From a phage, in sequence record PZ154895.1: a stretch of 64,000 nucleotides of DNA; one strand, written 5' to 3'. The notes under the pieces were generated by a model. It did not search any database. It was given only the letters and a program-made list of their open reading frames with translations, and was not told the origin of the DNA. Positions 28,741 to 51,997 of the stretch are shown here, piece after piece. Both the position numbers and the translations under genes were made by a program. The stretch's first letter is position 1, and the number at the start of each line of letters is the position of its first letter.

Positions 28741-30168
28741 GTGGTAGAAATTATTCTTTCTCATCTCATATTTGATCAAGCTTATTTTTCAAAAGTTTGG
28801 CCATATATGGATTCAGAATATTTTGAAAGTGGTCCAGCTAAAAATACATTCAAATTAATTAAATCTCATGTTAATGAATACCATAGCGTTCCATCTATTA
28901 ATGCGTTAAATGTTGCATTAGAAAATAGTTCATTTACTGAAACAGAATATTCTGGTGTAAAAACACTTATTTCAAAACTGGCCGATTCTCCGGAAGACCA
29001 TAGCTGGTTAGTAAAAGAAACAGAAAAATATATTCAGCAAAGGGCGATGTTTAACGCCACATCTAAAATAATTGAAATTCAAACTAATGCTGAGCTTCCT
29101 CCGGAAAAACGAAATAAGAAAATGCCAGATGTAGGTGCTATTCCTGACATCATGCGCCAAGCATTATCAATTTCATTTGATAGCTACGTTGGTCATGATT
29201 GGATGGATGACTACGAAGCACGTTGGCTATCTTATATGAATAAAGCTCGTAAGGTTCCATTTAAACTCAAAATTCTAAATAAAATTACTAAAGGCGGAGC
29301 TGAGACTGGAACACTGAACGTTTTAATGGCTGGTGTTAACGTTGGTAAGTCATTAGGATTGTGTTCATTGGCAGCAGATTATTTGCAGCTCGGACACAAT
29401 GTTCTTTACATTTCCATGGAAATGGCAGAAGAAGTCTGCGCTAAGCGTATTGACGCTAACATGCTCGATGTTTCTCTTGATGACATTGATGATGGGCATA
29501 TTTCTTACGCTGAATATAAAGGAAAAATGGAAAAATGGCGTGAGAAATCTACTCTTGGACGTTTAATCGTTAAACAGTATCCTACTGGTGGAGCAGACGC
29601 TAATACATTTCGGTCGCTTTTAAATGAATTAAAGCTCAAGAAGAATTTTGTTCCAACAATCATTATTGTTGACTATCTGGGTATTTGTAAATCTTGCCGC
29701 ATTAGAGTTTATTCAGAAAATAGTTACACAACTGTTAAAGCCATCGCAGAAGAATTGCGTGCTCTGGCTGTTGAAACCGAAACTGTTCTTTGGACTGCAG
29801 CACAGGTTGGTAAGCAAGCTTGGGATTCTTCTGATGTTAACATGAGCGATATTGCAGAATCTGCCGGTCTTCCAGCAACAGCCGATTTTATGCTTGCGGT
29901 CATTGAAACCGAGGAGTTAGCAGCTGCTGAACAACAACTCATTAAGCAAATCAAATCACGATACGGTGATAAGAATAAATGGAATAAGTTTTTGATGGGT
30001 GTTCAAAAAGGAAATCAGAAATGGGTAGAAATTGAACAAGATTCTACTCCAACTGAAGTGAACGAAGTAGCAGGTTCACAGCAGATTCAGGCTGAACAGA
30101 ATCGCTATCAAAGAAACGAATCCGCTCGAGCTCAGTTAGATGCTTTGGCAAATGAATTAAAATTTTAG
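28741..30168 (+). CDS. 41: replicative DNA helicase gp41 (DnaB-like)
   Basis: 475 aa; near-identical to T4 gp41; GTG start after AAGGAG; Walker A GVNVGKS. Confidence 0.95.
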   Translation: MVEIILSHLIFDQAYFSKVWPYMDSEYFESGPAKNTFKLIKSHVNEYHSVPSINALNVALENSSFTETEYSGVKTLISKLADSPEDHSWLVKETEKYIQQRAMFNATSKIIEIQTNAELPPEKRNKKMPDVGAIPDIMRQALSISFDSYVGHDWMDDYEARWLSYMNKARKVPFKLKILNKITKGGAETGTLNVLMAGVNVGKSLGLCSLAADYLQLGHNVLYISMEMAEEVCAKRIDANMLDVSLDDIDDGHISYAEYKGKMEKWREKSTLGRLIVKQYPTGGADANTFRSLLNELKLKKNFVPTIIIVDYLGICKSCRIRVYSENSYTTVKAIAEELRALAVETETVLWTAAQVGKQAWDSSDVNMSDIAESAGLPATADFMLAVIETEELAAAEQQLIKQIKSRYGDKNKWNKFLMGVQKGNQKWVEIEQDSTPTEVNEVAGSQQIQAEQNRYQRNESARAQLDALANELKF

Positions 30169-30204
30169 TTTACAAGCCGACAAGACTATGGTATAGTAGT
30201 CTTG
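30168..30204 (+). promoter_or_regulatory. early promoter with stem-loop around -10 (PeSL-like)
   Basis: GTTTAC 30168-30173, TATAGT 30192-30197, inverted repeat CAAGACT/AGTCTTG flanking the -10. Confidence 0.55.
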
Positions 30205-30226
30205 TTGGTTAAATGAGGAGATTTTT

Positions 30227-30409
30227 ATGGAATTGGTAAAGGTAGTTTTTATGGGGTGGTTTAAGAATGAAAGCATGTTTACTAAAGAAATCACAATGAT
30301 GAAAGATGACGTTCAATGGGCTACTACTCAATATGCTGAAGTTAATAAAGCGCTAGTTAAAGCTTTCATTGATGACAAGAAAGTATGCGAAGTGGATTGC
30401 CGAGGATAA
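30227..30409 (+). CDS. dmd: Dmd-like protein (60 aa)
   Basis: Size and position (first gene after 41) as T4 dmd; GAGGAG SD. Confidence 0.6.
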   Translation: MELVKVVFMGWFKNESMFTKEITMMKDDVQWATTQYAEVNKALVKAFIDDKKVCEVDCRG

Positions 30410-30410
30410 T

Positions 30411-30668
30411 ATGCATATTGTTTTATTTAAACCTACTCCGTATAACGTCAGGAAAAATACTCAATTCAAAGCACTTATCGCAGATACGTGGGAATTGGTA
30501 TTAGATATTCCAGCAGAAGAAAGCCCTCCATTTGGTCGAGTGGAATTTATTAAGTTTGCTGTGCGCCCTACGAAGCGACAGATTCGTCAATGCAAAAGAT
30601 ACTTTCGTAAAATCGTCAAGTTAGAGAAACAGTTTGTAACATGTGATTATACAGAAGTTTTAAAATAG
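30411..30668 (+). CDS. hypothetical protein
   Basis: ORF track 30369..30668; ATG at 30411 after GAGGA, immediately after dmd stop. Confidence 0.45.
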   Translation: MHIVLFKPTPYNVRKNTQFKALIADTWELVLDIPAEESPPFGRVEFIKFAVRPTKRQIRQCKRYFRKIVKLEKQFVTCDYTEVLK

Positions 30669-30670
30669 TA

Positions 30671-30712
30671 GTTTACAAGCTGATAGAGTTGTGTTATAGT
30701 AATTCTATCAGC
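30671..30712 (+). promoter_or_regulatory. early promoter with stem-loop around -10 (PeSL-like)
   Basis: GTTTAC, TATAGT, inverted repeat GCTGATAGA/TCTATCAGC. Confidence 0.55.
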
Positions 30713-30731
30713 TAATCGCGGAGAAAAGAAA

Positions 30732-30986
30732 ATGATGCTAGTTAATAGAGAATATCAGTTTAAATCAGAAGAAGATTTGGAAAAATTCGCGAGTGGTTGT
30801 GAACTGAATAGACGCACAGCTAAAGTCATAGGATTAAAACCCTTTACAGTTCTAGATTGTGAAGTTTCTAAATTCCGCAGAGGGTGTTCTATTAGCAGTC
30901 ATGCTCTGGTTGATGGGAACACATTTTTCTTTGTTTTTAGCGTCAGAGAACTTTTATTGATTAACGAACTTGAGGAAATAAAATAG
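30732..30986 (+). CDS. hypothetical protein (84 aa)
   Basis: ORF track; promoter/stem-loop upstream. Confidence 0.45.
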   Translation: MMLVNREYQFKSEEDLEKFASGCELNRRTAKVIGLKPFTVLDCEVSKFRRGCSISSHALVDGNTFFFVFSVRELLLINELEEIK

Positions 30987-31040
30987 TTTACTTTTGTTTT
31001 AAACATGTTATTATAGACCTATCAAAACAAACGAGTAAAT
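30986..31040 (+). promoter_or_regulatory. early promoter with flanking inverted repeat (PeSL-like)
   Basis: GTTTAC, TATTAT, TTTTGTTTT/AAAACAAA inverted repeat. Confidence 0.5.
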
Positions 31041-31050
31041 GGAGAATAAA

Positions 31051-31230
31051 ATGTCTAAAGTATCAGGTTATCAATTATTAACACAAGAACAACGTTCAGA
31101 GATGGATTCTTTACAAGAACGGTGTCAGCATAGAAATAACGCACTTGATTCATTTTTATTAATTGAATATGAAAACTTGTGCTCTAGACTTGAAAAAGAA
31201 TATGTTCATCAACATGGAGGAGAAGAATGA
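31051..31230 (+). CDS. hypothetical protein
   Basis: ORF track 31039..31230; ATG at 31051 has GGAG SD. Confidence 0.4.
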   Translation: MSKVSGYQLLTQEQRSEMDSLQERCQHRNNALDSFLLIEYENLCSRLEKEYVHQHGGEE

Positions 31231-31333
31231 AACTGAAATCACCAATTATTGTAATTTGTCTGTTTGCTTCTACTAGTGTTTACTTTTGTTGAAAATTGAG
31301 ATACTATAAACATAAACTACTGAGGAGATTATC

Positions 31334-31627
31334 ATGAAAAAATTTATCTTTGCTGCAATTTTTGCTTTATCTTCTTGCGCTGCTCAGCCTACTATGGCAG
31401 GCTATGATAAAGATTTGTGTGAGTGGTCTATGACTGCAGATCAGACTGAAGTTGAAACTCAAATTGAAGCCGATATTATGAATATCGTTGAGCGTGATCG
31501 TCCTGAAATGAAAGCTGAAGTGCAAAAACAACTTAAGTCTGGTGGTGTAATGCAGTATAATTATGTTCTGTATTGCGATAAAAACTTTAATAATAAAAAT
31601 ATCATCGCTGAAGTGGTAGGTGAGTAA
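31334..31627 (+). CDS. sp: periplasmic protein with signal peptide, Sp (spackle)-like
   Basis: 97 aa; cleavable signal peptide; position in 61.x cluster. Confidence 0.6.
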   Translation: MKKFIFAAIFALSSCAAQPTMAGYDKDLCEWSMTADQTEVETQIEADIMNIVERDRPEMKAEVQKQLKSGGVMQYNYVLYCDKNFNNKNIIAEVVGE

Positions 31628-31639
31628 ATAGAGGTTAGT

Positions 31640-31996
31640 ATGTATAGTTCTGAATTTTCATATTTAAAAATGGAAAAAATTTCATACGATTTCATAGATG
31701 AAAAGATTTATTACAGTTTCCATGAACCACGTTTTAATAGTGAAGTTGGGTTTATTGTAGTAAAAGACAATTTCATTTTAAAAATATATTCGGCATTAAA
31801 GGATTTTCACTACGAAAATATTAACCTAAAATTTGATAAAGAAAACGTTCGTAATTGCGCAGTAACAATTACAGGAAATAAAGGTACATGCGTTATGCTA
31901 TCTGATGAAATTAATGATTTGTTAAATGATGCCGAAAAGGTTGCTATTCCATCGATTGATGACCAAATTTTTAATGCTTTTATGAATAGAGGTTAA
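31640..31996 (+). CDS. hypothetical protein (118 aa)
   Basis: ORF track. Confidence 0.5.
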   Translation: MYSSEFSYLKMEKISYDFIDEKIYYSFHEPRFNSEVGFIVVKDNFILKIYSALKDFHYENINLKFDKENVRNCAVTITGNKGTCVMLSDEINDLLNDAEKVAIPSIDDQIFNAFMNRG

Positions 31997-31997
31997 T

Positions 31998-32162
31998 ATG
32001 AAAACATATAAAGAATTTATCAAAGAAGATATGGTAGCTGGAGATTCGGGTGGTAATCCTGAAAATATCTCTACTGGAACAACGTCAGGCGCTGTAGTAA
32101 ATAAAGGTCCTGAACAGATTCCTAAAAAGAAAAAAGAGGAATCTAAAGAAAAAGAAGAGTAA
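31998..32162 (+). CDS. small charged protein (54 aa), below ORF-track cut-off
   Basis: ATG 1 nt after upstream stop; stop 2 nt before gene 61 ATG. Confidence 0.3.
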   Translation: MKTYKEFIKEDMVAGDSGGNPENISTGTTSGAVVNKGPEQIPKKKKEESKEKEE

Positions 32163-32164
32163 AA

Positions 32165-33193
32165 ATGTCATCAATACCTTGGATTGATAATGAGTTTGCA
32201 TATCGTGCATTAGCTCATTTACCTAAATTCACACAAGTAAATAATAGTTCAACTTTTAAATTACGGTTTAGATGCCCTGTTTGTGGAGATTCAAAAACCG
32301 ACCAAAATAAAGCCCGTGGATGGTATTATGGCGATAATAATGAAGGAAATATTCATTGTTATAACTGCAACTATCATGCACCAATCGGAATATATTTAAA
32401 GGAGTTTGAACCCGATTTATATCGTGAGTATATCTTTGAAATAAGAAAAGAAAAAGGTAAAAGTCGTCCAGTAGAAAAACCTAAAGAACTTCCTAAACAA
32501 CCTGAGAAGAAAATAATTAAATCTCTTCCGTCATGCATTAGATTAGATAAATTGGCGGAAGACCATCCAATTATAAAATATGTAAAAGCTCGCTGTATTC
32601 CAAAGGATAAATGGAAATATCTTTGGTTTACAACCGAATGGCCTAAATTAGTTAATAGCATAGCACCAGGAACATACAAAAAGGAAATACCTGAGCCTCG
32701 TCTTGTTATTCCAATTTATAATGCTAATGGAAAAGCTGAGTCTTTTCAAGGACGTGCATTAAAGAAAGATGCTCCTCAAAAATATATCACCATCAAAGCT
32801 TATCCTGAAGCAACAAAAATCTATGGCGTTGAACGAGTTAAAGATGGTGATGTATATGTTCTAGAAGGACCTATAGATTCACTTTTTATTGAAAATGGTA
32901 TAGCTATTACGGGCGGTCAATTAGACCTAGAAATTGTTCCATTTAAAGATAGACGTGTGTGGGTTTTGGATAATGAACCTCGTCATCCTGACACTATTAA
33001 ACGAATGACTAAATTAGTTGATGCAGGAGAAAGGGTTATGTTTTGGGACAAATCTCCCTGGAAATCAAAAGATGTTAATGATATGATTAGAAAGGAAGGT
33101 GCAACCCCTGAACAAATTATGGAATATATGAAAAATAATATTGCCCAGGGGTTGATGGCTAAAATGCGGCTATCTAAATATGCTAAGATTTAA
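32165..33193 (+). CDS. 61: DNA primase gp61
   Basis: 342 aa; near-identical to T4 gp61; zinc ribbon CPVCGD...CYNC; TOPRIM region. Confidence 0.95.
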   Translation: MSSIPWIDNEFAYRALAHLPKFTQVNNSSTFKLRFRCPVCGDSKTDQNKARGWYYGDNNEGNIHCYNCNYHAPIGIYLKEFEPDLYREYIFEIRKEKGKSRPVEKPKELPKQPEKKIIKSLPSCIRLDKLAEDHPIIKYVKARCIPKDKWKYLWFTTEWPKLVNSIAPGTYKKEIPEPRLVIPIYNANGKAESFQGRALKKDAPQKYITIKAYPEATKIYGVERVKDGDVYVLEGPIDSLFIENGIAITGGQLDLEIVPFKDRRVWVLDNEPRHPDTIKRMTKLVDAGERVMFWDKSPWKSKDVNDMIRKEGATPEQIMEYMKNNIAQGLMAKMRLSKYAKI

Positions 33194-36790: not shown

Positions 36791-36820
36791 GTTTACTTTC
36801 CTTCCTAACAATGATATGAT
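36791..36820 (+). promoter_or_regulatory. early promoter upstream of modB
   Basis: GTTTAC, 18-nt spacer, TATGAT. Confidence 0.45.
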
Positions 36821-36846
36821 AGCTTCTGAAGTATATGGAGGCTATC

Positions 36847-37470
36847 ATGATTATTAATCTTGCAGATGTTGAACAATTATCTATAAAAGCTGAAAGCGTT
36901 GATTTTCAATATGATATGTATAAAAAAGTCTGTGAAAAATTTACTGACTTTGAACAGTCAGTTCTTTGGCAATGTATGGAAGCCAAAAAGAATGAAGCTC
37001 TTCATCGGCAGTTGAATAAAATCGTTAAAAAGCATTTAACTAAATCGCCTTATCAGTTATATCGTGGTATATCAAAATCGACAAAAGAACTCATTAAAGA
37101 TTTACAAGTTGGAGAAGTGTTTTCAACGAACAGAGTAGATTCATTTACTACTAGTTTGCATACAGCGTGTTCTTTTTCTTATGCTGAATATTTCACTGAA
37201 ACAATACTTCGCTTAAAAACTGATAAAGCTTTTAATTACTCTGACCATATCAGCGATATTATACTTTCTTCTCCTAATACTGAGTTTAAGTATACATATG
37301 AAGATACTGATGGATTAGATTCAGAACGTACTGATAACTTAATGATGATTGTGCGTGAACAAGAATGGATGATTCCAATTGGAAAGTATAAAATAACTTC
37401 TATTTCAAAAGAAAAATTACACGATTCATTTGGAACATTTAAAGTGTATGATATTGAGGTAGTTGAATGA
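36847..37470 (+). CDS. modB: ADP-ribosyltransferase ModB-like
   Basis: ORF track 36835..37470; ATG at 36847 after GGAGG gives 207 aa; R (LYRGI), S-x-S (TTSLH) and EQEWMIP motifs. Confidence 0.8.
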   Translation: MIINLADVEQLSIKAESVDFQYDMYKKVCEKFTDFEQSVLWQCMEAKKNEALHRQLNKIVKKHLTKSPYQLYRGISKSTKELIKDLQVGEVFSTNRVDSFTTSLHTACSFSYAEYFTETILRLKTDKAFNYSDHISDIILSSPNTEFKYTYEDTDGLDSERTDNLMMIVREQEWMIPIGKYKITSISKEKLHDSFGTFKVYDIEVVE

Positions 37471-41751: not shown

Positions 41752-41781
41752 GTTTACTTCCTCGGTTAGTTGTGGTATTAT
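41752..41781 (+). promoter_or_regulatory. early promoter
   Basis: GTTTAC, 18-nt spacer, TGgTATTAT. Confidence 0.55.
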
Positions 41782-41808
41782 AACACCATAGCTACTGAGG
41801 ATAATAAA

Positions 41809-42311: not shown

Positions 42312-42854
42312 ATGAAATTTAATTATAATCCTGAATACATACCAAATCCGGTAGCTAAACTGATTGATTTTGATGTTGTAAGCACTTATGTATGCCCTGT
42401 TAAACCATTGGAAATTAAGGAACCTACTATGACTACCGCTATTGAAATCGGCAAAACCTACAAACTGGTTGAACCTGAAATTAAAACTAATGCCTTGATT
42501 TCCGGCCATAAAACTCTGACTGATGTTTTTGGTGAAGGCGAATTTACTGTTGAAGACTTTGAAAAAAGTAAATGGTTTACTAAATCTTATATTGTCCACG
42601 GTCGTCGTTTAGACAATAACAAAATAGAGAAAATCCTGGTTTATGAAGCAGAGTTCATCCTGTTCCAAGAAGTTGAAGAACAAGACCCTACAGACCTTCT
42701 AACTCGTGCGGTAGCTATCAAGACTCCATTTATTTCAGTCTGTGGTTGGGTAACAGACCAATGGATTGAAGATGGCGTTGAACTTCTGAACGTTGTTCAT
42801 GCAGGTGATTTTAGCGTAGTACCTCGTAGTGCAGTGGTAGCTATTTTGAATTAA
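42312..42854 (+). CDS. hypothetical protein (180 aa); C-terminal domain shared with next gene
   Basis: ORF track. Confidence 0.5.
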   Translation: MKFNYNPEYIPNPVAKLIDFDVVSTYVCPVKPLEIKEPTMTTAIEIGKTYKLVEPEIKTNALISGHKTLTDVFGEGEFTVEDFEKSKWFTKSYIVHGRRLDNNKIEKILVYEAEFILFQEVEEQDPTDLLTRAVAIKTPFISVCGWVTDQWIEDGVELLNVVHAGDFSVVPRSAVVAILN

Positions 42855-42856
42855 TA

Positions 42857-42892
42857 GTTTACAAACTCTTGGGACCAGAGTATAATGGTCCC
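42857..42892 (+). promoter_or_regulatory. early promoter with -10 inside hairpin (PeSL-like)
   Basis: GTTTAC 42857-42862, TATAAT 42881-42886 flanked by GGGACC/GGTCCC. Confidence 0.55.
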
Positions 42893-42930
42893 GCGGAGTA
42901 TAAAATCTTTTTAACAAGTGAGAGATAACT

Positions 42931-43428
42931 ATGATTATTAATATTGGTGAAATTGCTCGTGTATCTGATAAATCCCGTTCTAAAGCAGCAGGAAAATTGG
43001 TCGAAATTGTAAGCATTCAGCTTAAACATGGTGTTAAAGATGAAGATTCTGAAGTAAAAGTGCGTATCATTCCTAAAGATGGAAAGTCTAAACCTCAGTT
43101 TGGCTATGTTCGTGCGAAATTTCTTGAGTCTGCGTTTTTGAAAGCTGTTCCTGCTAAAGGAATTGAAACGATTGATACTTCGCATGTAGGTGTAGACTTT
43201 AAGTGGAAACTCGGTCAGGCTATTAAGTTCGTTGCTCCTTATGAATTCGAATTTACTGAAGATGAGGAAGGGGTTGTTCAAAAACATCGTACTCGTGCTA
43301 TGTGTGCATACATTACTGATCAATGGGTAGAAGATGGTGTTAAGCTATACAACGCGGTATTTTTAGGAACATACAAAGTCATTCCTGAAAGTTGGATTAA
43401 ACACTATAGCAAAGCTCGCTGTGCATAA
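42931..43428 (+). CDS. hypothetical protein (165 aa); paralogous C-terminal domain
   Basis: ORF track; promoter with stem-loop upstream; shared motif (C)xYxTDQW(I/V)EDGV(E/K)L(L/Y)N(V/A)V. Confidence 0.5.
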   Translation: MIINIGEIARVSDKSRSKAAGKLVEIVSIQLKHGVKDEDSEVKVRIIPKDGKSKPQFGYVRAKFLESAFLKAVPAKGIETIDTSHVGVDFKWKLGQAIKFVAPYEFEFTEDEEGVVQKHRTRAMCAYITDQWVEDGVKLYNAVFLGTYKVIPESWIKHYSKARCA

Positions 43429-47148: not shown

Positions 47149-47177
47149 TTTACTTTACCACAAGGATGTGGTATAAT
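47148..47177 (+). promoter_or_regulatory. early promoter, near-identical copy of promoter at 887
   Basis: GTTTACTTTaCCACAAGGATGTGGTATAAT. Confidence 0.6.
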
Positions 47178-47202
47178 TAATTGGGTAAATGAGGATATTG
47201 AA

Positions 47203-51433: not shown

Positions 51434-51463
51434 GTTTACATACCACAAGGACTGTGGTACTAT
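51434..51463 (+). promoter_or_regulatory. early promoter
   Basis: GTTTAC, 18-nt spacer, TGgTACTAT. Confidence 0.5.
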
Positions 51464-51490
51464 ACAACTATCAGCTACGGAGGAGTAAAA

Positions 51491-51939: not shown

Positions 51940-51969
51940 GTTTACAAGACTGTTCTTCCGTGGTACTAT
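51940..51969 (+). promoter_or_regulatory. early promoter
   Basis: GTTTAC, 18-nt spacer, TGgTACTAT. Confidence 0.5.
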
Positions 51970-51997
51970 TACCCTATCAACTACGGAGGAACAGAAA

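Follow-up and report, generated by a model that had tools for sequence, protein, structure and literature searches.

Promoter-early stem-loops (PeSLs) were defined in the Krischvirus phages phi1 and RB49 (Arbiol et al. 2010, PMC2839356) and were later extended to the T4/PST pair, in which the promoter takes the form TTTACW-N17-TAYWAT and the stems are variable and AT-richer (Comeau, Arbiol & Krisch 2014, PMC4122927). By definition such an element combines a sigma70-type early promoter, an AT-rich stretch with an upstream stop codon, a stem-loop in or near the promoter, and a Shine-Dalgarno sequence (SD) followed by ATG, and it is found in a hyperplastic region. One phi1 PeSL was shown by reporter assay to have terminator/attenuator activity, and it was speculated by Arbiol and colleagues that GGGG/CCCC stems might be a recombination target (PMC2839356). 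Here we describe a 64,000-nucleotide (nt) stretch of phage DNA (record PZ154895.1; hereafter the window, whose own positions are used throughout), in which a sequence-only reading had pointed to three consecutive PeSL-like cassettes around the genes dmd and 61.4 and to a fourth at 42857-42892. The window belongs to a Tequatrovirus, a T4-like phage, and has the gene order 41-dmd-61.4-...-sp-61. The locus illustrates the pattern published for PeSLs well and is no new kind of element. Cassettes 1 and 2 and the cassette upstream of motB carry every sequence-level feature of a PeSL, with promoter and terminator activity and mini-circles as predicted properties, whereas cassette 3 and a further promoter upstream of sp (P_sp) are ordinary early promoters, which Arbiol and Comeau would term "half" PeSLs. 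Our preferred reading, which we hold to be probable, is that the cassettes are T-even PeSLs whose stems act on RNA read in from upstream and whose genes turn over by recombination at shared motifs of 12-15 nt.

Compared with the T4/PST elements (PMC4122927), the cassettes have the same type of promoter, a stop codon in an AT-rich stretch and a downstream SD and ATG; the stems are likewise variable and mostly AT-rich, and the region is hyperplastic and lies beside open reading frames (ORFs) that differ in close relatives. They differ in that PST stems are placed "just upstream of the promoter" by the 2014 legend, while here they straddle the -10, as in subclasses of phi1/RB49. In addition, the stems do not have the AGNA..TCNT pattern, and the -10 TATAGT is one base off TAYWAT. 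The text of Comeau 2014 nowhere mentions the 41-61 locus, and these cassettes and indels may therefore be undescribed, though their kind is known. With the phi1/RB49 elements (PMC2839356) the cassettes share the composite of promoter and stem-loop, "Overlapping the -10" being among the commonest subclasses there (at the Phi1 locus GGGGGTA..TACCCCC stands around a -10), as well as a stop codon in an AT tract, the flanking of optional ORFans, and deletion or insertion between neighbouring cassettes. In contrast, the phi1/RB49 promoters are near-consensus (TTGACA/TATAAT), their stems are G/C-rich, and their conservation extends over ~100 base pairs (bp), against 12-15 nt of contiguous identity here. 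Promoter and terminator activity and mini-circles are experimental in those phages, whereas the present cassettes are known from sequence.

Early promoters and hairpins between gene 41 and sp

The cassettes and their parts are the following.

30160-30226, + strand: cassette 1 (P_dmd), an AT-rich stretch with a stop codon, a promoter and an SD
30166-30168, + strand: TAG stop codon of gene 41, overlapping the G of the first -35
30168-30173, 30189-30197 and 30215-30220, + strand: -35 GTTTAC, TGG plus -10 TATAGT, and SD GAGGAG of cassette 1
30192-30197, + strand: -10 of the P_dmd promoter, TTTACA-17-TATAGT with extended TG
30175-30189/30196-30210, + strand: hairpin 1, with the loop GGTATA and a 15-bp stem in which 3 pairs are G.U
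30662-30731, + strand: cassette 2 (P_ORF84), AAAATAG-TAG followed by a promoter and an SD
30671-30676, 30692-30700 and 30720-30723, + strand: -35 GTTTAC, TGT plus -10 TATAGT, and SD GGAG of cassette 2
30695-30700, + strand: -10 of the P_ORF84 promoter, TTTACA-17-TATAGT with extended TG
30678-30691/30700-30713, + strand: hairpin 2, a 14-bp stem including 2 G.U pairs, whose loop TGTTATAG holds most of the -10
30980-31050, + strand: cassette 3 (P_ORF59), AAAATAG and the promoter TTTACT-16-TATTAT, with -35 GTTTAC at 30986-30991 and -10 at 31009-31014
30993-31000/31024-31031, + strand: inverted repeat 3, TTTGTTTT/AAAACAAA, AT-only
31041-31053, + strand: GGAGAATAAAATG, the ORF59 ribosome-binding site, an exact fit to the strong RegB consensus GGAGRAYARAA
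31278-31333, + strand: cassette 4 (P_sp), with the right copy of GTTTACTTTTGTT at 31278-31290, -10 TACTAT at 31302-31307 and SD GAGGAG, and no stem-loop
42855-42934, + strand: motB early promoter cassette, TAGTTTACA-17-TATAAT (TTTACA-17-TATAAT)
42871-42876/42887-42892, + strand: motB hairpin GGGACC/GGTCCC, extendable to ~13 bp

It had been claimed that each of the three spacers holds an early promoter, and a T4-type -35 and -10 is indeed present in all three. We infer promoter activity from these sigma70-type matches to TTTACW-N17-TAYWAT. P_sp (31278-31307) is a fourth local promoter, which the earlier reading had missed. On the + strand the window has six copies of the motif TAGTTTAC (30166-30173, 30669-30676 and 30984-30991, and also at 885, 42855 and 47146) and on the - strand one, and all six + strand copies are located at early-promoter-like sites. 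In each of the three cassettes the TAG abuts or overlaps GTTTAC. The further claim, that all three spacers open with a stop codon fused to the -35, holds at 30166 and 30984, where the TAG of TAGTTTAC ends the frames of gp41 and ORF84, respectively, but not at 30669, where it is a second in-frame TAG right behind the true 61.4 stop (30666-30668). AT-rich tracts with a stop codon lie upstream of the -35 (AAAATTTTAG, TTTTAAAATAGTAG and GAAATAAAATAG), and in all four local cassettes the ribosome-binding site has a GGAG-containing SD 6-8 nt ahead of the ATG.

The sites have been annotated by the depositors of related phages. The P_dmd site is labelled "predicted early promoter" in fPS-65 and "rho-independent terminator" in SA20RB, cassette 2 is a terminator in SA20RB, and the motB cassette is both promoter and terminator in SA21RB. 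Early promoters are predicted at cassette sites in fPS-65 and DalCa, and the terminator annotation in SA20RB and SA21RB, which concerns exactly these hairpins, was made with WebGeSTer and TransTermHP. The T4 reference records NC_000866, KJ477684 and S57514 carry no promoter or terminator annotation at the 41-dmd locus.

The significance of each hairpin was assessed against 200 dinucleotide shuffles. The first two inverted repeats of the sequence-only reading, CAAGACT/AGTCTTG and GCTGATAGA/TCTATCAGC, proved to be parts of the longer, 15-bp hairpin 1 and 14-bp hairpin 2. Hairpin 1 lies between the gene 41 stop, 7 nt ahead of its first base, and the dmd SD, 5 nt beyond its last; for hairpin 2 the distances are 10 nt from the 61.4 stop and 7 nt to the ORF84 SD. 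Both are far beyond chance, with folding energies of -21.8 kcal/mol (z-score -5.46) and -18.0 kcal/mol (z -3.93), and the fourth example was likewise found upstream of motB, with -24.4 kcal/mol and z -4.78; none of the 200 shuffles was as good in any of the three cases. The third repeat (30993-31031), on the other hand, behaves like its shuffles, 41 of 200 of which fold as well (-7.6 kcal/mol, z -0.78), and it is disrupted in phage PP01 by a G>A change. Cassette 3 is a promoter without a credible stem-loop, and P_sp has no structure (z +1.98 against shuffles). Among the 17 early promoters in the window, five have a hairpin with z below -3.7, and the mean z over the 17 is -1.7, so structure near early promoters recurs in this genome. 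Rfam covariance models gave no match at E <=1 in 29900-31700 on either strand.

Gene gain and loss at the cassettes

The genes and repeats concerned are listed below.

28741-30168, + strand: gene 41, replicative helicase (from the ORF list and homologous-locus annotation)
30227-30409, + strand: dmd, antitoxin against RnlA/LsoA, 60 amino acids (aa), 100% identical to T4 Dmd
30411-30668, + strand: gene 61.4, DUF7279, 85 aa
30732-30986, + strand: ORF84, 84 aa, goF-like, phrog_2980, an optional module in ~71 phage records
30986-30998 and 31278-31290, + strand: GTTTACTTTTGTT, a 13-nt direct repeat bracketing the ORF59 module
31051-31230, + strand: ORF59, 59 aa, phrog_37915, an optional module in only 21 phage records
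31334-31627, + strand: sp (spackle, gene 61.3)
31640-31996, + strand: ORF118, followed by 61.1 and then the primase gene 61
31629-32000, + strand: ORF118 module, with an AdfA-like C-terminus, flanked by TAGAGGTTA(A/G)TATG repeats
31629-31642 and 31987-32000, + strand: the two TAGAGGTTA(A/G)TATG repeats

A megablast search with 30100-31400 matched 515 phage records, Tequatrovirus nearly throughout. The top match, Escherichia phage GEP001, has 99.3% identity over 100% of the query, and T4 covers just 54% of it, split in two pieces. The suggestion that 30.2-31.3 kb is plastic was borne out, as four architectures exist between 61.4 and sp, comprising all presence/absence combinations of ORF84 and ORF59 among relatives. 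Neither gene is found in T4, FN, fPS-65, HY01 and most others; ORF84 alone is found in PD112, RB10 and one IMG/VR contig; both are found in the window, GEP001, PP01, ime09 and REP4; and ORF59 alone is found in IsaacDaniel and SA20RB. Rough record counts in the phage collection were 478 for a T4-type Dmd of at least 95% identity, 71 for ORF84 and 21 for ORF59. In other genera further genes occupy this interval: SP18 (Gaprivervirus) has a goF-like gene immediately behind gene 41, and in Mosigvirus imm.1/imm fill the 61.4-sp slot, each of these having its own early promoter and several a hairpin.

The edges of the indels and of an allele swap fall in the cassettes, which agrees with the expectation that cassette boundaries coincide with indel break-points. 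The ORF84 module starts at AAAATAG|TAGTTTACA, joined to either of two 61.4 3' ends, and identity to RB10 is 33% over 30640-30669 and 100% from 30670 on. The ORF59 indel falls on the repeat GTTTACTTTTGTT, of which phages without ORF59 have one copy (PD112/RB10 comparison). In the ORF59-only phages IsaacDaniel and SA20RB, P_ORF84 and hairpin 2 are joined to ORF59, and the fusion point is GGAGAAcAAAATG, which serves both the ORF84 and the ORF59 module as ribosome-binding site. RB10 (locus L004) and HY01 (locus L012) carry a dmd allele with 66.7% protein identity; its nucleotide divergence is limited to the SD and ORF, the replaced segment running from ~30210, the end of hairpin 1, to ~30410, the start of 61.4, with flanks of at least 97% identity. 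The joints fall in the stop codon plus -35 (AAAATAG..TTTAC), in GTTTACTTTTGTT, or in the ribosome-binding site plus ATG (GGAGAAnAAAATG), and none of the joints examined lies inside a stem. Alignment is ambiguous within each repeat, so that the exact crossover points cannot be fixed. The stems are unlike each other and share no sequence between cassettes, where contiguous identity amounts to just 12-15 nt, and they therefore offer no homology. As a separate observation, the 3' end of gene 61.4 in Tequatroviruses is either of the T4 type (85 aa) or of a form of 74-80 aa, and both meet the same AAAATAGTAGTTTACA (30640-30669). A P_sp and sp allele that differs a little is also common to the ORF59-bearing phages, an indication that the ORF59 module is linked to it beyond the repeat.

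These positions support recombination over short homology at expression signals that are repeated, with viability as the filter. Modules would be gained and lost by rare recombination between motifs of 12-15 nt common to all modules: one unites the stop codon and the -35 (AAAATAG/TAGTTTAC), another the -35 and the spacer (GTTTACTTTTGTT), and a third the SD/RegB site and the ATG (GGAGAAnAAAATG). The stems would be the private cargo of each module and not its crossover point. The claim that the cassettes mediate the shuffling of small early genes may hold in part: the joints do lie in the -35/stop and SD/ATG motifs of the cassettes, which may simply be where short homology and viability coincide, but the stems are never the joint, and the ORF118 indel needs no cassette. 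ORF118, between sp and 61.1, is present or absent with equal precision at a boundary 300 bp downstream that has neither promoter nor hairpin. The joint positions also argue against the idea of Arbiol and colleagues that the stem is a recombination target. Like morons (Hendrix et al. 2000) and integron cassettes, the modules are single accessory genes with their own expression signals on a conserved backbone; unlike integron cassettes they have no integrase or attC site here, and unlike morons their flanking signals are common motifs that hold the joints.

Action of the hairpins and rival explanations

Apart from the third, the inverted repeats are conserved relative to the promoter, one of the checks that had been proposed for them. 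Hairpin 1 was followed in 23 Tequatrovirus loci comprising 11 haplotypes (a Dmd search contributed 5 IMG/VR and 7 metagenome loci). It is kept in 23/23, with the 11 haplotypes 100% paired, and is kept even in RB10 and HY01, whose dmd protein is far diverged. Six stem positions vary, all by C-G/U-G, G-C/G-U/A-U or A-U/G-U steps, which is consistent with selection on the pairing. Of 78 phage records, 71 have a cassette 2 with 100% identity. The motB hairpin was compared between Tequatrovirus and Dhakavirus, where four of eight pairs have changed on both sides (A-U/G-C, G-C/A-U via G-U, and U-G/G-C), and pairing is 100% against 31-47% with the partner strand slid, both figures coming from four haplotypes only.

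Several features suggest that it is the sense RNA that folds. In the inverted repeats that score at least 8 at early promoters of the window and of three other genera, the non-Watson-Crick positions were G.T in ten cases and A.C in three, and none of the A.C positions lies within a statistically strong hairpin. This bias is expected of pairing in sense-strand RNA and not of a DNA cruciform or an antisense RNA. At every strong site + strand folding beats that of the - strand, and folds with DNA parameters are weak (-7 to -9 kcal/mol). From the joint positions and the ORF118 indel, the stems look like RNA elements that act on read-through transcripts and not like recombination sites.

At the usual sigma70 spacing, transcription starts ~7 nt past the -10. 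For all three hairpins (1, 2 and motB) the promoter spacer encodes the 5' arm, the -10 is placed in the loop and the upper part of the 3' arm, and the predicted transcription start is within the 3' arm; in hairpin 1 the -10 covers the loop and 3' arm, and the start is predicted at ~30204. Since the 5' arm is upstream of the predicted start, the hairpin would form only in RNA read in from the upstream gene and not in the module's own mRNA. Each module would be self-contained, with a strong sigma70 early promoter that is preceded by a stop codon and AT tract and followed by a small ORF with a GGAG ribosome-binding site. The hairpin would most likely attenuate or end the incoming transcript, or give it a stable 3' end, insulating the module and leaving its own message unburdened; RegB might also cleave just 3' of the hairpin and so leave a protected 3' end. 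It is this action on incoming transcripts, the "terminator/attenuator" half of a PeSL, that we prefer. A comparable arrangement is seen in Mosigvirus, Gaprivervirus and Dhakavirus, where a UUCG-tetraloop intrinsic terminator with a U-tract lies 1-6 nt behind gene 41 and is followed by an early promoter:

L013 1150-1190: gene 41 UUCG terminator, Mosigvirus
L015 886-920: gene 41 UUCG terminator, Gaprivervirus
L017 1593-1630: gene 41 UUCG terminator, Dhakavirus

Hairpin 1 fills the equivalent post-gene 41 slot in Tequatrovirus, and in both settings the slot comes right after the gene 41 stop and is followed by early promoters of the GTTTACA type. The elements differ in that the terminators have a UUCG loop, a GC stem and a U-tract and stand upstream of the -35, while hairpin 1 lies across the promoter and is not followed by a U-tract.

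A number of observations weigh against this reading of PeSLs that act on read-in RNA and are shuffled at short motifs. The changes in hairpin 1 are one-sided and of wobble type only, with no two-sided change, and its shuffle control (405/500) was uninformative; hairpin 2, being invariant in relatives, gives no covariation information. The folding advantage of the + strand is partly compositional, as shuffled + strands fold better too, and for this reason the count of G.T against A.C was used as evidence instead. No U-tract lies behind hairpin 1 or 2, whose tails are GGTTAAATGAGG and AGCTAATCGCGG, and a scan of 29000-33000 for consensus intrinsic terminators found no site, which makes classical intrinsic termination doubtful. 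Full-text literature searches gave no transcript-end data for the 41/dmd locus and no T4 map of transcription starts or 3' ends. As for the shuffling, the precise indel of the promoter-less ORF118 implies that stem-loops are not needed for it, and two of the four local promoters, P_ORF59 and P_sp, serve as module borders without a hairpin. Moreover, homology of 12-15 nt is short for T4 recombination (patches under 50 bp are cited in Arbiol et al. 2010, PMC2839356), and survivorship, in that only indels leaving ORFs intact persist, could alone put the joints in intergenic DNA.

Among the other explanations, the one that survives best is that the hairpins are translational insulators, such that on read-through RNA they block ribosome loading on the downstream ORF and mRNA fit for translation comes only from the promoter of the module itself. 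It would account for the 5' arm being always upstream of the predicted start, for the ends of hairpins 1 and 2 lying 5-7 nt upstream of the SD and within the 30S footprint, and for the SD within the 3' arm at 41753, 51941 and 36792 elsewhere in the window and at one Mosigvirus promoter. It also has a paradigm at late promoters, in the T4 genes e, soc, 49 and I-TevI (PMC3014915), where, as here, the promoter lies inside the DNA for the 5' strand of the hairpin and only RNA initiated upstream folds. In those genes, however, the SD or AUG is paired, whereas cassettes 1, 2 and motB are early and their SD is free. In all three, neither the SD nor the ATG pairs in the minimum-free-energy or the centroid structure, and the motB hairpin ends ~40 nt upstream of the start codon. 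For the cassettes we regard this explanation as rather unlikely.

It is less likely again that the joints coincide with the cassettes only through survivorship of random illegitimate recombination, the cassettes being ordinary promoters. Between genes so small and so closely set, any viable indel must end in the spacers of ~60 nt, the ORF118 indel behaves alike with no promoter, and the homology tracts are short. Against this, every joint examined lies in a motif repeated at both ends (GTTTACTTTTGTT, AAAATAG..TTTAC, GGAGAAnAAAATG or TAGAGGTTAnTATG), which is the signature of homology-guided events, and excision of mini-circles between PeSLs was found experimentally in phi1 and RB49.

Those same mini-circles could be read in favour of stem-loops that act as DNA, as a cruciform or as the target of a protein that is DNA-binding or structure-specific, and at which the recombination itself takes place. 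Every strongly structured cassette does have an inverted repeat, and the DNA folds of hairpins 1 and 2, weak as they are, are still above shuffles (z -5.1 and -3.2). We give this possibility marginally less credit than survivorship, because no joint lies within a stem, the stems are wholly different between cassettes, and the mismatches are G.T and not A.C, which leaves the - strand arm broken; in addition, the hairpin-less P_sp and ORF118 borders recombine just as precisely. Finally, an origin of the inverted repeats as chance or neutral by-products of the AT-rich promoter consensus, of which the pairing of the -10 with upstream ACTAT in the hairpin 1 stem might be a trace, is accepted for the AT-only repeat 3 but is hardly credible otherwise and was rejected for hairpins 1, 2 and motB, given the shuffles, the 23/23 conservation of hairpin 1 and the compensatory changes in the motB hairpin.

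A wider generalization is put forward only tentatively, namely that T-even early hairpins are a sense-RNA device that marks the origin of a transcript, and that expression motifs of 12-15 nt (the stop/-35 and the RegB-type GGAGAAYAAAATG), and not the stems, are the shuffling engine. If so, the fold of read-in RNA would cap the upstream message at dmd, ORF84 and motB and silence the downstream ribosome-binding site at 41753, 51941 and 36792, an accessory gene, at whatever site it was inserted, would depend on its own promoter alone for expression, and motif-driven shuffling would revise the "PeSL-mediated" model. With its four architectures and an adjoining promoter-less control indel, the locus lends itself to a clean test of the PeSL model on natural data, and its predictable motifs could be natural "landing pads" for the engineering of T4-like phages.

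Neighbouring genes and further early promoters

The 41-61 interval looks like a counter-defence/exclusion islet, carrying dmd, sp and the adfA-like ORF118, and imm in Mosigvirus, and ORF84 and ORF59 may be flagged as candidate accessory or anti-defence genes. Pfam AdfA (anti-DarT factor A, PF23813) is matched at E 2.5e-8 by the C-terminal two thirds of ORF118, which share ~35% identity with the C-terminus of T4 gp61.2. The window has no full-length 61.2, and GEP001 and FN have both ORF118 and 61.2. One further small frame lies between ORF59 and P_sp:

31227-31292, + strand: 21-aa ORF (from the ORF list), overlapping the ORF59 stop and entering the next -35

This ORF, MKLKSPIIVICLFASTSVYFC, starts inside the ORF59 stop (ATGA) and ends inside the -35 of P_sp, and is probably the N-terminal stump of a signal-peptide gene, cut when the ORF59 module met P_sp. 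In the phage collection its sequence is present only in the same 21 ORF59-bearing records, and neither a donor of the ORF59 module nor a full-length form of the stump was found there beyond them.

Strong sense-strand hairpins were also seen at the early promoters 41759-41801, 51950-51994 and 36816-36848 (z -5.5, -5.7 and -2.5). In the hairpins of these promoters (sites 41753, 51941 and 36792) the SD lies within the 3' arm, at 36792 together with the ATG, and the 5' arm is upstream of the predicted start. By analogy with genes e, soc, 49 and I-TevI, these hairpins may be taken as an early-promoter version of ribosome-binding site sequestration. The Mosigvirus ORF040c promoter (L013 1623-1667) has the same design, with the SD in the 3' arm of a perfect 14-bp stem. 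Elsewhere, the early promoters 888-930, 47149-47190 and 51435-51475 have a nearly identical spacer, CCACAAGGA(C)TGTGG, which forms a 5-bp inverted repeat set between their -35 and -10. This likeness suggests that the three are duplicated copies, which could add dispersed homology.

Two observations concern the motB cassette. The outer part of its hairpin pairs ACUCU with GGAGU and includes the GGAG at 42897-42900 (in GCGGAGTAT), so that in read-through RNA a stem-held GGAG stands ~35 nt ahead of the true motB SD. GGAG sites are known to be shielded by secondary structure from cleavage by RegB. The ORFs on either side of the 42858 cassette, 42312-42854 and 42931-43428, are labelled motB.1-like and MotB in relatives, and their C-terminal likeness, as judged by eye, suggests a tandem pair of paralogues around a promoter-hairpin cassette.

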